From contig JBKOUQ010000147.1 of NCBI GenBank assembly GCA_046723475.1, positions 23,487-87,486 of the forward strand: 64,000 bases of DNA, read 5' to 3'. This document shows positions 38,773 to 48,307 of this stretch, piece by piece; position 1 is the stretch's first letter; the number at the start of each line of letters is the position of its first letter. The position numbers and the translations under genes are program-made. Below the pieces are notes generated by a model, which was not told the origin of the DNA, did not search any database, and saw nothing but the letters and a program-made list of their open reading frames with translations. Source of the DNA: Candidatus Methylomirabilota bacterium (GTDB lineage Bacteria; Methylomirabilota; Methylomirabilia; Rokubacteriales; CSP1-6).

Positions 38773-39129
38773 TCAGCGGTGGTATCGCGTCTCGAACAGG
38801 AGCGCGCCGCCAGGACTCGCATACGGTCCGTGGCGCATGCCCGGCGGACGGCACGCGTACATGCCCTCCGAAAACGTTCGGCCGAGCCCGAGGTCATCGA
38901 GACTGCCCTGGACGATGAGCACCTCTTCCCAGAAATCGTGCGCGATGGTCTCCGTCGTGCGGACGCCCGGGGCAAATCGCAACAGCCGCGTCACGTCGCC
39001 CGTGGCCGGATCGCGGCTGAGCACTTTCTGCTCGATCCCGGGACCGCCCGCGCCCGCCGCAGCAGAGCCGGCCACCGCTTCCCAGGGCAGATGATCAGGG
39101 CGGAAAAACTCGAGCTCGGGCTTCGGCAT
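38773..39129 (-). CDS. Cupin-domain protein (ChrR-like cupin)
   Basis: 118 aa with beta-rich sequence ...TETIAHDFWEEVLIVQGSLDD...GMYACRPPGMRHGP typical of small cupins. Confidence 0.55.
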   Translation of the reverse strand: MPKPELEFFRPDHLPWEAVAGSAAAGAGGPGIEQKVLSRDPATGDVTRLLRFAPGVRTTETIAHDFWEEVLIVQGSLDDLGLGRTFSEGMYACRPPGMRHGPYASPGGALLFETRYHR

Positions 39130-39134
39130 GCCGG

Positions 39135-39671
39135 TCAGCGTCGAGCTGGTGACGCCAGCAACGATTCAACGAGCACGTGCGCAGCCGGCGATTCCCACGG
39201 CACGGTCCCGATCGCGCGGCCGACCAGCCGGCCCTCGCGATCGATGAAGTACACCGTTGGCGGGCCCCAGACCCCGTAGATCCTGCCCGCCGTGTCGCCG
39301 CTCGTGTCGAGCAGCACCGGCGCGGTGTAGCGGCGTTCGGCGACGGTTTTTCGAACGAGGTCAGTATCCTCGCGGAACGTGACCAATCGGACTTCGAGCC
39401 CGCGATCGTGATACGCCCGGTAGAGGGCGTCGACGGAAGGCAACGCCTTCCGACAATCCGGTCACCACGTCGCCCAGAAGTAGAGGATGACGACATTGCC
39501 GCGCAGCGCCTCGAGTGTCTGCGTCTTGCCGTCGAGATCGGGCAACGATAAGGCGGGCGCCGGCTTGGGTGGCTCGTACGGCAGAATCTGCAGCGTCTCC
39601 CAGTCGGGCGCGGGCGTCGCCGCCGCCGTGAGCACGAGCACGGCGACGAGCGCCACGAGCGACCGGCTCAT
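39135..39671 (-). CDS. TlpA/ResA-like thiol:disulfide oxidoreductase, candidate selenoprotein (in-frame TGA at 39462-39464 replaces the first Cys of WCxxC)
   Basis: Signal peptide MSRSLVALVAVLVLTAAA, then ...VVILYFWATW-TGA-PDCRKALPSVDALYRAY matches FWATWCGPCR with U-x-x-C. The two track ORFs (39462..39671 and 39135..39443) are in the same frame, separated only by the TGA. A hairpin GGAAGGC-GUU-GCCUUCC starts ~10 nt after the TGA. Confidence 0.6.
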
Positions 39672-40231
39672 TTTGCCCCCGAGGCCTTGAGCGCTTGCAG
39701 CACCTCGTCGGGATTCAAGAGCTCGAGCGGGTTCTGCATGACTTTCGCATAGCGGACGACGCCCTCGCGATCGATGACGAAGTACGCGCGCTTGGCGTAC
39801 CGGTAGATCGGGCTCGCTTCGTTCATCTCCATCGCCCCGTACGCCGGTAGCATCGTGCGCCGAAAGTCCGAGAGCAGGAGGTGCTTCGTGCCGTTCTGCT
39901 TGCTGAATGCCTCGAGCGTTGCCGCGTGATCGGCACTGACGCCCACGACCTGGGCGCCTGCGGCTTCGAACTGCGGCCGGGCCGCGTCGAAGTCCGCAAT
40001 CTCCTTCGCTCAGGTCGAGGTGAACGCCTGGATGAAGGTGTAGACGACGACCGGACCCTTCGCGGTCAGGTCGGACAGCTTTACGGGCGGGGTGTTACGG
40101 TCGGCGGACTTTGGCAGCGTGAAGTCGGGGGCTTTCTCACCGACGGCCAGCGCGTGGGCCGCGCCGGCCATGATCAGCACCCCCAGCACGCCCAACAAGA
40201 CCGCCGCGCACACATGACGTCGTGGTGTCAT
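39668..40231 (-). CDS. Peroxiredoxin (AhpC/TSA-Bcp-like), candidate selenoprotein (in-frame TGA at 40010-40012 at the peroxidatic Cys position)
   Basis: RBS GAGGAGGAG precedes ATG 40231. Signal-like MTPRRHVCAAVLLGVLGVLIMAGAAHA, then ...VVVYTFIQAFTST-TGA-AKEIADFDAARPQFEAAGAQVVGVSAD corresponds to the Prx FTxVCPTEI core. Both track fragments are in-frame. ATGA overlap with the downstream Sec-TlpA gene. Confidence 0.6.
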
Positions 40232-40301
40232 CGGAGGGCTCCTCCTCGGCACAGAGGATCGCATACGCCACAAACCGCCCTCGTGCGGCCGCGGTTCCCG
40301 C

Positions 40302-41342
40302 TTATTTGCGCCCGGTGAGCTCGGCGCGCACGACGGCCGCGCCCGCGGCCAGCCCCGTGAGCTTCTGGTTGCACATGTAGCGCGGGGACCAGCCGAAGCC
40401 ACAGTCGGGGTTGAGCGTCAGCTTTTCGGCGGGACACACCTTGAGCACGCGGCGGATGCGGTTCGCGACGGAGTCCGCGGTTTCTTCCTGGAAGCCCTTC
40501 ACGTCGATGACGCCGGCGCCCAGCTCGCGGCCGTCGCCGTACTTTTGCCAGAGCTCGAGCTCGGAGAGCTCGCGACTCGCGAACTCGAGCACGAACTGGT
40601 CTGCGCGCGCCTTGAGGACACCCGGAAAGTATGGCTCGTACGAACGCGAGAAGCGTGAGCGTCCGAAGCGATTCCCGAAGCAGATGTGGAAGCCTAGCTT
40701 GGCGCGCACGCCGTCGGTGGCGAGGTTGAACAGCCGCGCCATCTCTTCGCCCGACACGTTGCCGCGCGCGGGCTCGTCGAGCTGGATCAGCTGTGCGCCG
40801 GCGGCGACAAGGCCCTTCAGCTCGGCGTTGATGACCTCCGCGAAGCGCTCGGCGACGTCCACCACGCTCTTGTACGCGCTGCCTGGATGGATCCGCGAGC
40901 CGAACGTGAGCGGGCCCGCGCACGTGGCCTTCAGCGCGCGGTGCGTGTGGGCGCGCAGGAACTCGAAGTCGCGCACGAGTCCGAACCCCGTCGACGGCAC
41001 CTCGATGCGCCCGACCGCCTCGTAGCGCTGCTGCTGGTCGTAGCCCCACGGGCCGGCCTTCCGGCGCACGGGCAGCGGCGCGATGTTCTTGATGATGCGG
41101 TAGTACGTGTCCACGTAGCCGTCCGTGCGTCGGGCCTCGCCGTCGGTAATGATGTCGATGCCCGCCGTTTCCATGTCGCGGATGGCGGTGTGCACGGCAT
41201 CGTCGAACATCTCGTCCATGTCGCCGGGGCCCATCTCGCCGGCCTCCCAGGCTTTGACAGCGGTGAACCACCAGCCGGGCTTGCCATGAGATCCGACCAC
41301 CGATGTGGGCAACAAGGGCACTTGGGTCATGCGCGAGATCAT
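40302..41342 (-). CDS. Cobalamin-independent methionine synthase C-terminal (MetE_C/UroD-like) domain protein
   Basis: 346 aa with DGEARRTDGYVDTYY, IQLDEPA and GFHICFGN...NPDCGFGWSP, a MetE catalytic-domain-like Zn site. Confidence 0.8.
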   Translation of the reverse strand: MISRMTQVPLLPTSVVGSHGKPGWWFTAVKAWEAGEMGPGDMDEMFDDAVHTAIRDMETAGIDIITDGEARRTDGYVDTYYRIIKNIAPLPVRRKAGPWGYDQQQRYEAVGRIEVPSTGFGLVRDFEFLRAHTHRALKATCAGPLTFGSRIHPGSAYKSVVDVAERFAEVINAELKGLVAAGAQLIQLDEPARGNVSGEEMARLFNLATDGVRAKLGFHICFGNRFGRSRFSRSYEPYFPGVLKARADQFVLEFASRELSELELWQKYGDGRELGAGVIDVKGFQEETADSVANRIRRVLKVCPAEKLTLNPDCGFGWSPRYMCNQKLTGLAAGAAVVRAELTGRK

Positions 41343-45936: not shown

Positions 45937-46048
45937 GCGCTCCTCCTTGAGTAGTCCGACGGCGGCGTCGGGCCGGTCATTGTAGCCTGCGGCCGCGCGC
46001 GGATGCTATAGTCGGCGCGTTCCCACTCGCGATCCGCCGGGGGAGACT

Positions 46049-48307
46049 GTGTACGTCAGGTTTTGGGGCACCCGCGGCTCCATCGCCGCGCCCGGTGCCA
46101 GCACGGCGCGCTATGGCGGCAACACCTCGTGCACCGAAGTCCGGACGCCGGACGGCACGTTGATCGTGCTCGACTGCGGCACGGGCGCCCGGGAGCTCGG
46201 GCTGCATCTCACGCAAACGCTGAAGCCGCCGATCCACGTGCATCTGTTCATCGGCCACACACACTGGGACCACATCCAGGGGTTCCCGTTTTTCGTCCCG
46301 GCCTTCATCCCGGGCGTCGAGCTCAGCGTCTACGCGCCGCTGGGCTTCCAGCAGAGCCTCGAGGAGGCGATGGCGGGGCAGATGGAGTATTCGTACTTTC
46401 CCGTCAAGCTCCGCGACCTGCGCTCGCGGCTGCATTTCACCGAGCTCGAAGAGGGCTTTTTCCGCGTGGGCGACGTGCTCGTCGAGACGCAGTACCTGAA
46501 TCACACCGCGCCCACGATCGCGTACCGCATCACCAGTCAGGGCACCACGCTGGCGTACGTCGCCGACCACGAGCCGTTCTGGAAGCCGGACGAGGGAGGC
46601 CTGCAGCACCCGGGCGACCAGCGCCACGTCGCGTTCATGAAGCATGCGGACCTGGTGATTCACGACGCGCAATACACCGACGAAGAGTATCGCCAGCGCG
46701 TCGGCTGGGGGCATTCACCGATCGAGTACGCGATCGACGTGGCTATGGATGCCGGCGTTCGACGCCTCGCCCTTTTTCATCACGACCCCACGCACGACGA
46801 CGCCGTCATGGAGCAACTCGAAGCTTCGGCACAGGCGCGGGCTCGTGCGGCCGGCTCGAGCCTCGAGGTATTTGCGGCGCGTGAAGGCGTGCACCTGAGG
46901 CTCGCCGGCGACGGGCGCGCGGCGCCCGTGTCCGAGGTGTCGGCGTTGCGGCGGCGGAGCGTGGCGGGCGCCCGCATCCTCGTCGTCAGCGGCGACGACG
47001 CGCAAGTGATGGCGATCGAGGACATGCTCGCCGACGACGGCATGGTCGCGCTGCCGGTCCGCGACATGCAGGCCGCGGTCACGCGCGGGACGGAGCATAT
47101 GCCGGACCTCGCGATCGTGGACGCCGATCTGCCGCTCGCGGAGGGCGTCAGTCTGATTCCCGACTTTCGCGCGCGCTTGAACCGCCCGAGCTTCCCGATC
47201 GTGCTCCTGGCCGATCGACCGGACGGCGCCGCTGACGGCGGCCGCAGCGGTGCCACCGACTATCTGGCGAAGCCGTACAGCCCGCCCATGCTGCGGGCGC
47301 GCGTCCGCGCGTGGCTGGCGCGTAGCGCGGCGGCGCTCGATGGTTCGGCCGGCGCCGAGCAGGCGGGCGTCGCCGCCACAGCGTCGCAGGACCGAGTCAG
47401 CACGCGCACATTGCTCTCGAGCATCCTGTCGTCCATTCCGCTTTTCAAGAAGTGCACGCCGTCGCAGCTCACGCGGCTCGTGCGACACGCGAGCGAGGAG
47501 GTCTATCCTTCCGGCCACGTCGTGATGCGTCAGGGCGAGGCGTCGGACAGCGTCTGGGTGCTGCTGTCCGGCCGTGTGCGCGTGGTGGAAGCCATGGCCG
47601 ACGGACAGGCCGAGTTGCTGCTCGGCGAGCTGGGCCGCGCCGAAGTGTTCGGTGAAGTCGGCATCCTGCGCGACCAGCCGCGTGCGGCCACGATCATCGC
47701 GGTGGAGCGCACGCACTGCCTCGTGTTGCAACGCCCCGATTTCATCGCGGTACTGCAGCAATCACCCGAGCTCGCGAACGCGCTGCTCCGCGTCGTGGCG
47801 GGACGTCTTTACGACGCCGACCGGAAGCTCGCGCGCTATGCGCCGGACCCGCTCACGGGCCTCGCCAGCCGCCGCGCGTTCTACGATCAGTATCGTCGGC
47901 TCGCCGCGGGCGCGCGGCGTCGCAAGAACGGGGTGCTGCTGCTGACGCTCGACGTCGTCAGGCTCAGATCCGTCAACGACAGCTTCGGCTACGCGCTCGG
48001 CGACGAGATTCTCCGGACGGTCGCCGACGCGCTCGTTGAATCGACGCGTACGACCGATCTCGTTGCACGGCACGGCGGCGACGAGTTCGCCGTCCTGTTG
48101 CTCGACGCCATGCCGCAGGACGTGGAGACTGTCGTGGCGCGCGTCCGGGACAAGCTCGCGACGCTCGCCGTGCGGCGCCGGGTGCCGGTCCCCATCGAGT
48201 GCTCGATGGGGATTGCGTGGAGCGCATCGCCGCCCGAGAACGCCGAGGAGCTGCTTCGCGAGGCCGACCGCGACATGCAGGAGCGACGCACCGCGGGCGA
48301 GAGTTAG
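46049..48307 (+). CDS. Multidomain signalling protein: metallo-beta-lactamase fold, receiver (REC), cyclic-nucleotide-binding, then GGDEF diguanylate cyclase
   Basis: MBL motif HTHWDHIQG plus HDAQY/FHHDP. REC-like ILVVSGDD...DLAIVDADLP...KPYSPPMLRARVRAWL. cNMP-binding FGEVGIL...RAATIIAVERTHCLVL. GGDEF core RHGGDEFAVLL with an RxxD I-site (RTTD) 5 aa upstream. Confidence 0.85.
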   Translation: MYVRFWGTRGSIAAPGASTARYGGNTSCTEVRTPDGTLIVLDCGTGARELGLHLTQTLKPPIHVHLFIGHTHWDHIQGFPFFVPAFIPGVELSVYAPLGFQQSLEEAMAGQMEYSYFPVKLRDLRSRLHFTELEEGFFRVGDVLVETQYLNHTAPTIAYRITSQGTTLAYVADHEPFWKPDEGGLQHPGDQRHVAFMKHADLVIHDAQYTDEEYRQRVGWGHSPIEYAIDVAMDAGVRRLALFHHDPTHDDAVMEQLEASAQARARAAGSSLEVFAAREGVHLRLAGDGRAAPVSEVSALRRRSVAGARILVVSGDDAQVMAIEDMLADDGMVALPVRDMQAAVTRGTEHMPDLAIVDADLPLAEGVSLIPDFRARLNRPSFPIVLLADRPDGAADGGRSGATDYLAKPYSPPMLRARVRAWLARSAAALDGSAGAEQAGVAATASQDRVSTRTLLSSILSSIPLFKKCTPSQLTRLVRHASEEVYPSGHVVMRQGEASDSVWVLLSGRVRVVEAMADGQAELLLGELGRAEVFGEVGILRDQPRAATIIAVERTHCLVLQRPDFIAVLQQSPELANALLRVVAGRLYDADRKLARYAPDPLTGLASRRAFYDQYRRLAAGARRRKNGVLLLTLDVVRLRSVNDSFGYALGDEILRTVADALVESTRTTDLVARHGGDEFAVLLLDAMPQDVETVVARVRDKLATLAVRRRVPVPIECSMGIAWSASPPENAEELLREADRDMQERRTAGES

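Follow-up and report, generated by a model that had tools for sequence, protein, structure and literature searches.

The DNA analyzed here, a 64-kb stretch of contig JBKOUQ010000147.1 from a Methylomirabilota (Rokubacteria)-type bacterium (hereafter, the window), carries on its minus strand two overlapping genes, each of which contains a single in-frame TGA codon at a predicted redox-active position. These genes likely form a translationally coupled two-gene operon that encodes two extracytoplasmic selenoproteins, a peroxiredoxin (Prx; gene 1) and a TlpA-like thiol:disulfide oxidoreductase (gene 2) that would recycle it; this interpretation, which relies on comparisons of sequences and predicted RNA folds, is assigned a probability of roughly 0.85. 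Genuine decoding of both TGA codons as selenocysteine (Sec), considered separately from the partnership of the two proteins, appears highly probable. The features of the locus, along with the evidence used to define them, are as follows.

40239..40247, minus strand: Shine-Dalgarno sequence GAGGAGGAG, located 7 nt upstream of the gene 1 ATG (direct reading of the sequence)
39668..40231, minus strand: gene 1, predicted exported 1-Sec peroxiredoxin of the BCP/PrxQ type, 187 amino acids plus the stop (reading frame, Pfam, PDB alignment, homologues)
40151..40231, minus strand: MTPRRHVCAAVLLGVLGVLIMAGAAHA, predicted signal peptide of gene 1 that includes a cleavage-type motif, AHA-L (assigned by inspection and from the start of the alignment)
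40010..40012, minus strand: UGA, proposed Sec codon at the peroxidatic position of gene 1, T-S-T-U (TxxU motif) (reading frame, 161-locus comparison, PDB alignment)
39958..39999, minus strand: hairpin of gene 1 resembling a selenocysteine insertion sequence (SECIS) (fold, conservation, covariation, specificity for TGA loci)
39135..39671, minus strand: gene 2, predicted exported or membrane-anchored TlpA/ResA-like thiol:disulfide oxidoreductase with the W-U-P-D-C motif, 178 amino acids (reading frame, Pfam, PDB, adjacency)
39615..39671, minus strand: predicted signal peptide or N-terminal anchor of gene 2, MSRSLVALVAVLVLTAAAT (by inspection)
39462..39464, minus strand: UGA, proposed Sec codon of gene 2, in place of the first (nucleophilic) Cys of CxxC (reading frame; TGA in 18 partner genes)
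39431..39455, minus strand: predicted bacterial SECIS (bSECIS) of gene 2, UG-CGGAAGGC-GUU-GCCUUCCG-UCG (fold, conservation, model criteria)

The reading frame of gene 1 extends from the ATG at 40231 to the TGA at 39670..39668 and comprises 188 codons with a single internal stop, the TGA at 40012..40010. This codon lies in the context YTFIQAFTST(stop)AKEIADFDAARPQFEAAGAQVVGVSADH, in which the part past the stop begins with AKEIADFDA, and the tryptic peptide that spans it would read GPVVVYTFIQAFTST-U-AK. The first-pass annotation, made from the sequence alone, had joined the open reading frames (ORFs) 40010..40402 and 39668..39946 into one gene, placed the intervening TGA at the position of the peroxidatic cysteine (Cp) of a peroxiredoxin, and described coupling of this gene to the next one. 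All three observations hold. Both ORFs are present in the ORF list in one frame, offset by 342 nt, i.e., by 114 codons; the terminator TGA of gene 1 overlaps the ATG of gene 2 (ATGA); and alignment with the PDB sequences puts the internal stop on the Cp residue of the FTxVC-TKE motif. With U read as C, gene 1 matches the Pfam domain AhpC/TSA (PF00578) with an E value of 1.8e-28 (99.4 bits, with a gathering cutoff of 26), the match covering residues 30-161 of gene 1 and profile positions 1-123 of 124. The Redoxin domain of Pfam is matched as well, and residues 26-182 align to the archaeal BCP/PrxQ structures 2ywn (E value of 1e-23), 2cx3 (1e-21), and 3hjp, with E values ranging to 5e-21.

The archaeal BCP/PrxQ proteins (2ywn/4g2e, 2cx3, and 3hjp) are the closest solved relatives of gene 1, collinear with it across the mature domain and aligned with it at the Thr, Cp, and Arg (KRA-x-F-V-ID) positions. 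The Thr residue at position -3 is retained (F-T-S-T-U in gene 1 versus F-T-Q-V-C in 2ywn), as is the active-site Arg (YAKRAYFVID versus LAKRAVFVID in 2ywn). However, the archaeal BCPs are cytoplasmic and contain a Cys at the Cp position and a resolving Cys five residues past it (VCTKEMC), which in gene 1 correspond to U and Ala, respectively (U-AKEI-A). The sole Cys residue of gene 1 sits in the signal peptide, leaving the mature protein cysteine-free. Given the absence of the resolving Cys, the mature protein is predicted to function as a 1-Sec peroxiredoxin that requires an external reductant.

Gene 2, whose start at 39671 gives it a 4-nt overlap with the end of gene 1, contains exactly one internal TGA, 39464..39462, in the context VVILYFWATW(stop)PDCRKALPS; the tryptic peptide across this codon would read GNVVILYFWATW-U-PDCR. 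The first-pass annotation had correctly recognized the coupling to this gene and had missed its in-frame TGA, which makes it a second selenoprotein candidate. The gene 2 product matches AhpC-TSA (PF00578) with an E value of 5e-22 (78.5 bits, cutoff 26), as well as the Redoxin and Thioredoxin-like domains, and its top PDB matches are 3kcm, ResA, and TlpA, with the TGA falling on the first Cys of the WCPPC motif of 3kcm. It therefore combines a PF00578/Redoxin match with the U-x-x-C motif, the two traits by which the Prx-like oxidoreductase selenoproteins are recognized. Across the window, a scan for TGA codons found only 40012 and 39464 to be flanked by coding sequence in both directions and to have a redox motif as well. 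Further selenoprotein genes in the window were considered and rejected, as the remaining same-frame TGAs represent ordinary stops between neighboring genes or lie in antisense frames.

A scan of species-representative genomes and another of metagenome contigs yielded 160 related loci (161 with the window). In this set, the gene 1 codon reads TGA in 48 cases, TGC in 79, and TGT in 34 (i.e., Cys in 113), and nothing else. Every locus with more than 43% identity to gene 1 carries TGA, including L001-L004, which show 63 to 77% identity and come from assemblies labeled Candidatus Rokubacteria, Methylomirabilota, and Binatia. Altogether, the TGA-carrying loci range from ∼32% to 77% identity, and the more distant ones belong to Dormibacterota, Myxococcaceae, Acidobacteriota, a deltaproteobacterium, and an Alkalihalobacillus metagenome-assembled genome (MAG). 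Full-length Cys homologues with 53 to 57% identity (P0008 and P0019) are found in the protein database. In the partner genes related to gene 2, the corresponding codon is TGA in 18 cases (the window, 11 main-clade loci, and 6 loci with the reversed gene order) and Cys in L054, L103, L105, and L078. Both genes thus form Sec/Cys pairs with their homologues, 48 TGA to 113 Cys for gene 1 and 18 TGA to 4 Cys for gene 2, in agreement with the Sec/Cys-pair criterion.

The first-pass annotation had also noted that the frame downstream of the gene 1 TGA is conserved. When 24 orthologues are compared to the window, the differences in this region amount to 0.22, 0.20, and 0.44 per codon at the first, second, and third codon positions, respectively, with 67% amino acid identity. 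This third-position bias, together with the protein-level identity, indicates that the region 3' of the TGA is translated and under purifying selection. Elsewhere in the window, TGA is a normal stop: it ends 30 of the 44 crude gene models, being the commonest stop there, and it ends gene 1 as well, so the genetic code is not reassigned. The strict alternation of TGA with Cys codons, the purifying selection downstream, and the presence of a covarying hairpin specific to TGA loci (see below) make Sec recoding, as suggested in the first pass, by far the best explanation of these data, and the in-frame TGA of gene 1 is almost certainly a real selenocysteine codon.

Each of the two UGA codons is followed by a predicted RNA hairpin. 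The published bSECIS model (PMC13188914) calls for an apical loop of 3 to 9 nt, a stem of 4 to 16 bp, a UGA-to-loop distance of 16 to 37 nt, and a minimum free energy (MFE) of at most -7.5 kcal/mol, and it further demands a G within the first two positions of the apical loop. The gene 1 hairpin consists of a lower stem, CUUCGA/UCGAAG, which is lengthened in the window by UUGCGG/CCGCAG, an upper stem, GCGGC/GCCGC, and the apical loop CCG. It had been described earlier as a possible fold that is not a textbook bSECIS, and both parts of that description are borne out. The hairpin, extended at its base, is the MFE fold (76 nt from the TGA, -38.5 kcal/mol, z = -2.4), and with 5 bp in the upper stem, 6 to 8 bp in the lower one, a 3-nt loop, a spacing of 29 nt, and an energy of -15 to -23 kcal/mol, it agrees with the model in everything but the loop G.

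When 27 distinct TGA-bearing sequences are aligned without gaps, with the TGA in columns 1-3, columns 18-26/44-52 and 28-32/36-40 are paired in 86% of the cells, compared to 32 to 51% in the controls with the partner slid by 1 to 3 columns. Both sides have changed in 7 of the pairs, and none of 500 shuffles equaled the observed pairing or covariation score. In L087, the pairing is kept despite amino acid changes on both arms (GGCAUCGA/UCGAUGCC and GGGGC/GCCCC), and in the clade with ∼44% identity, a hairpin of a different sequence occupies the same place after the gene 1-type UGA. The fold z score of the 57 nt past the codon averages -1.99 in TGA loci (n = 40) versus +0.06 in Cys loci (n = 100; Mann-Whitney p = 4.8e-14), and this difference persists at a G+C content above 0.6.

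The gene 2 hairpin starts 9 nt past the UGA and has its loop at 17 nt, an 8-bp stem, a GUU loop, and an energy of -12.4 kcal/mol, in agreement with all four published bSECIS criteria, the loop G included. Its orthologues have the form CGGGAGG-AGUUG-CCUCCCG, with a 7-bp stem and the loop AGUUG or AGUUA. This structure is paired in 91% of the cells versus 46 to 68% in the slid controls; one of its pairs alternates between G:C, G:U, and A:U, and another between A:U and G:C. In a group of six loci with the reversed gene order (L104, L106-L109, and L122), the best SECIS-like hairpin of the TlpA-like gene, GCCCUC-CGUGCA-GAGGGU, is located farther from the UGA than in the window clade.

A TlpA-like gene adjoins 21 of the 48 Sec-Prx loci, as opposed to 1 of the 113 Cys-Prx loci. 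In 11 main-clade loci, this gene lies 3' of the Prx gene and carries a TGA in the W-U-P-x-C motif. In L104, L106-L109, and L122, with ∼44% identity, the order is reversed, so that the TlpA-like gene comes first, and the TGA is kept (W-U-T-I-C or W-U-P-I-C). In L103, L105, and L054, the partner of the Sec-Prx has a Cys (WCASC, WCQEC). The pairing of gene 1 with gene 2 survives rearrangement, and its retention in the reversed order and with Cys-containing partners is the pattern expected of interacting proteins. Genes for MetE-like, ABC, CoA-transferase, and cupin proteins that neighbor the pair are shared among the fetched loci only with the nearest relative, L001, or with none; since no neighbor is kept beyond L001, a larger conserved operon was ruled out, and the conserved unit is the two-gene pair.

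The cupin is encoded by the gene at 38773-39129 on the minus strand, 5 nt past the stop of gene 2; it comprises 118 amino acids and is annotated in the public call as Cupin_7 (ChrR-like cupin). It was not found beside the pair in other fetched loci. In the Sec-Prx sub-clade with the TFIAAFTPT-U motif (L003, L004, L081, L083-L086, L093, L095, L096, and L100), the next gene is a conserved one of ∼137 amino acids whose product has a lipoprotein-like N-terminus (…LSAAC…). Among the fetched loci, only L078:1614-2780, from a Thermodesulfobacteriota MAG, has both a TlpA-like domain (WCPYC) and a DsbD homologue near the Prx gene; the Prx of this locus is of the Cys form and has a signal-like N-terminus.

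Export of both proteins is predicted from their N-terminal sequences. The N-terminus of gene 1, MTPRRHVCAAVLLGVLGVLIMAGAAHA-LAVGEKAPDF, combines a basic n-region with a hydrophobic core and an AxA-type site, and this extension stops exactly where the alignment with the cytoplasmic BCPs begins. The relatives of gene 2, TlpA, ResA, and CcmG, are anchored or exported proteins. A hydrophobic N-terminal extension is present in 42 of the 44 evaluable Sec-Prx loci versus 5 of the 105 Cys-Prx loci. On a neighbor-joining tree of the Prx loci, only 3 changes between Sec and Cys are needed, and the window falls within a clade of 36 distinct Sec sequences. These data are best described by one large old clade of apparently exported Sec-Prx and do not amount to a general law; no rule that Sec goes with export is claimed, as the association rests on very few (∼3) switches.

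Two Sec-Prx candidates found among the related loci have no N-terminal extension. These are L065:6169, from the Alkalihalobacillus macyae MAG (FYPLDWTPV-U-GAQM), and L073:6121, from a Deltaproteobacteria MAG (FYPLDFTGG-U-EQEL); both are apparently cytoplasmic and represent separate Sec/Cys switches on the neighbor-joining tree. In L159 (∼889-900), the TGA is found three codons before the Cp Cys, FYRGFW-U-LLC-NSEL, which is an arrangement of the UxxC "Prx-like" type and not of the TxxU type.

The locus is best read as a probable selenium counterpart of the TlpA-PprX pair of Caulobacter, an extracytoplasmic peroxide-reducing system. In the ScsB-TlpA-PprX pathway of Caulobacter crescentus, an exported BCP/PrxQ peroxiredoxin is reduced by TlpA (Cho et al. 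2012, PMC3322552). The two systems share a BCP/PrxQ-type Prx with an N-terminal signal extension and a TlpA-type periplasmic reductant, the export of the window proteins being predicted. The nucleophiles of the Caulobacter proteins, however, are Cys residues, and both a resolving Cys and the complete PxxxTxxC signature are present in PprX, whereas in the window pair both nucleophiles would be Sec, the Prx lacks a resolving residue, and the two genes share a single operon with no ScsB, DsbD, or CcdA gene found nearby.

In the proposed mechanism, SelB with Sec-tRNA would recognize each hairpin and direct insertion of Sec at both UGAs, as the TGA comparisons and the RNA signals suggest, and both proteins would then be exported. 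According to the chemistry of the family, the selenolate of gene 1 can be expected to reduce peroxide and turn into selenenic acid. The Sec residue of the W-U-P-D-C motif of gene 2 would attack the oxidized Prx, and the resulting mixed Se-Se or Se-S bond would be resolved by the Cys of the same motif; this step is proposed because the genes are linked in an operon and because TlpA-PprX provides a precedent (PMC3322552). Gene 2 would in turn be re-reduced by a membrane transporter of the DsbD/CcdA/ScsB type whose gene would lie outside this locus. Gene 1 is likely recycled by gene 2, and the odds of a specific Prx-TlpA electron relay are about even. A more elaborate proposal, put forward tentatively and with somewhat less confidence than that, is an all-selenium envelope relay, in which a Cys-free exported 1-Sec Prx and a dedicated exported Sec-x-x-Cys TlpA-like partner, which would recycle it by way of a selenenyl-selenide or selenenyl-sulfide bond, would form an old operonic module with a SECIS variant that does without the loop G. 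This module would belong to a clade of at least 36 exported Sec-Prx from soil Methylomirabilota, Binatia, Acidobacteriota, Dormibacterota, and Myxococcota that is fragmented by current annotation.

Several results weigh against the interpretation of the locus as an operon for two selenoproteins acting in one relay. No tRNA-Sec was detected by ARAGORN in the window or in any of the related loci, and no SelA, SelB, or SelD was found by tblastn with the E. coli queries in the window or in the 160 loci (∼1 Mb). Rfam returned no SECIS or other meaningful match for either hairpin, whether with the window at the gathering threshold or with 39350-40080 at permissive settings. Neither of the first two nucleotides of the apical loop is a G in the gene 1 hairpin, the loop being CCG in the window, mostly CCU among the orthologues, and also CUGC; some genuine bSECIS elements fail the bSECIS model (PMC13188914). 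The Pro of the PxxxTxxC signature (position -7) is replaced by Ile or Val in the gene 1 clade (TFIQAFTSTU); Val is found at this position in some Cys homologues, too, so the lack of the Pro is a variation inside the peroxiredoxin family. One ENA protein, P0029 (143 amino acids), a close homologue, has Leu at the Cp position (FIQAFTNT-L-AKEIRDF); this Leu might reflect a point change of the TGA, a copy without activity, or an error. With regard to the relay, tblastn with E. coli DsbD found no DsbD/CcdA homologue either within the window or next to any Sec-Prx locus, and the large TFIAAFTPT-U sub-clade has no adjoining TlpA-like gene, which indicates that the Prx-TlpA partnership is not obligatory. 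The missing partner in this sub-clade and a possible role of the TlpA-like protein in cytochrome or copper-center assembly weaken the case for the relay and not the Sec reading.

Several alternative explanations were weighed. Gene callers see four short ORFs at this locus, and there is no Sec machinery in the window, as would befit a gene disabled by a nonsense mutation, a pseudogene in decay, or a mistake in sequencing or assembly. However, the identical TGA is found in 48 independent assemblies at ∼32 to 77% identity, the downstream frame is kept with a third-position substitution bias, the neighboring gene shows the same TGA pattern, and a conserved hairpin follows each TGA, so that this explanation is effectively refuted and its residual probability is negligible. 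Decoding of the UGA in some other way, either as Cys by a SelC*-type tRNA (tRNA-ReC) with SelB and SECIS or as Trp or Gly by a reassigned code, is very improbable as well. The tRNA-ReC-type tRNAs that give Cys at a SECIS-directed UGA are mentioned in PMC13582414 as having been described in some bacteria, and the JGI gene calls show W at the gene 1 site. Nevertheless, a reassigned code is excluded by the use of TGA as a stop in most window genes and in gene 1 itself, and by the alternation of the gene 1 codon with Cys only, never with Trp or Gly. The W-containing JGI proteins run through real stops, too, consistent with use of a wrong translation table. A tRNA-ReC might conceivably insert Cys at the UGA, but both the mechanism of recoding and the biology of the locus would then hardly change.

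The last alternative accepts both selenoproteins as real and denies that they form a peroxidase-reductase pair: the TlpA-like protein would serve in the maturation of cytochromes or copper centers, and the Prx would have another donor or act as a sensor or chaperone. TlpA, ResA, and CcmG are best known for such maturation of cytochromes and Cu centers. Furthermore, the large Sec-Prx sub-clade that lacks the partner has a small putative lipoprotein gene instead, and no membrane donor gene is found nearby. However, the pair is kept with the 4-nt overlap, in the distant clade with the reversed order, and with Cys-containing partners; a Prx that has no resolving Cys needs an external reductant; and the Caulobacter TlpA reduces an exported BCP-type Prx (PMC3322552). 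With these points taken together, the absence of a functional pair appears unlikely, albeit less so than the preceding two alternatives, and the two-selenoprotein operon with gene 2 as the recycler of gene 1 remains the preferred interpretation.

Both genes belong to known broad selenoprotein families and represent neither a new family nor a new recoding mechanism. The Sec peroxiredoxin family (PF00578, TxxU) was founded on experimental work with its first member, PrxU of Eubacterium acidaminophilum (Sohling et al. 2001, according to the list in PMC13188914), and its proteins rank among the commonest predicted bacterial selenoproteins. The Prx-like thiol:disulfide oxidoreductases (UxxC) have been a high-confidence predicted family since 2004 (Kryukov and Gladyshev). 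The Global Ocean Sampling (GOS) survey (PMC2398784) listed 253 members of the Prx family and 225 members of the Prx-like thiol:disulfide oxidoreductase family ("Prx-like 1"). With both families long known, the locus is to be regarded as real and not new in kind. A conserved operon that combines a Sec-Prx with a second selenoprotein was not among the pairings in the bacterial selenoprotein surveys compared, GOS (PMC2398784) included.

Gene 1 resembles the PrxU family in its AhpC/TSA fold, in the predicted Sec at the peroxidatic site (TxxU), in the in-frame hairpin, and in having many Cys homologues. It differs from PrxU in being of the BCP/PrxQ type instead of the AhpC/Prx1 type and in having a signal peptide, an Ile where the signature has Pro, a Cys-free mature protein, and a SECIS loop that lacks the consensus G. 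Its scores with the curated NCBIfam models lie below the cutoffs: 44.5 bits with the PrxU equivalog NF040737 (cutoff 270) and 40.6 bits with the Prx-SUH model NF045827 (cutoff 298). Gene 2 is similar to the Prx-like UxxC selenoproteins in its PF00578/Redoxin matches, the U-x-x-C motif in the CxxC position, and a bSECIS that fits the consensus, and it differs from them in falling below the cutoff of every curated NCBIfam selenoprotein model. It scores 61.3 bits with the ResA-like WAxxUGC model NF041054 (WAxxUGC_long; cutoff 300), its own motif being WATW-U-PDC, and 82.8, 61.5, and 43.1 bits with the NCBIfam ResA, TlpA, and DsbE models (cutoffs of 170, 230, and 123, respectively). Gene 2 is a relative of the TlpA, ResA, and CcmG families and an equivalog of none of them.

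The use of Sec in this phylum is supported by the literature. A Methylomirabilota MAG has been predicted to have 63 selenoprotein genes (PMC13188914), and Sec-containing group 4 hydrogenases have been reported in Methylomirabilota (PMC13582414). A literature search for Rokubacteria together with selenocysteine returned nothing relevant. An apparent match to the N-terminal part of SelB in L103 and L105 was rejected, as it comes from a 630-amino-acid GTPase of the TypA/BipA type; the gene for this GTPase (L103:413-2305, and likewise in L105) lies directly upstream of the Cys-TlpA/Sec-Prx pair.

In the public gene calls, the two genes are cut into four ORFs, of 73 and 92 and of 69 and 102 amino acids. 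Genes identical to the neighbors of the pair are present in JGI samples 3300038976 and 3300037529. Among the best 120 database proteins, 107 are fragments of 100 to 125 residues that start a few codons past the TGA, and none carries U. As noted above, no curated NCBIfam selenoprotein model captures either gene 1 or gene 2. Such fragmented calls, combined with the lack of a capturing model, mean that a whole clade of soil-bacterial selenoproteins is being annotated wrongly. Several JGI proteins (P0001-P0005, P0007, and P0020) show W at the Sec codon and a second W at the true TGA stop, through which they continue into chimeric C-termini, a pattern compatible with translation of these contigs by a table in which TGA codes for Trp.

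To our knowledge, TlpA-PprX is the only characterized bacterial pathway of peroxide reduction in the cell envelope. A conserved exported pair of predicted selenoproteins, one of them Cys-free, suggests a selenium-based version of this pathway and offers a tractable case for studying why Sec replaces Cys in an oxidizing compartment. The particulars of the locus include a BCP/PrxQ-type protein with a signal peptide, the replacement of the signature Pro by Ile, the absence of Cys from the mature Prx, the G-less SECIS loop, and the operon with a second selenoprotein candidate. The significance of the locus rests mainly on the exported two-selenoprotein pair and on the systematic mis-annotation of its relatives.

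At a distance from the pair, the minus strand of the window contains, at 46000-48300, open segments of 568, 348, and 245 codons that share the same frame and are split only by the TGAs at 47764 and 46717. These segments have a coding-like composition, show no redox motif at the TGAs, and overlap a 752-amino-acid plus-strand ORF of the crude gene map.

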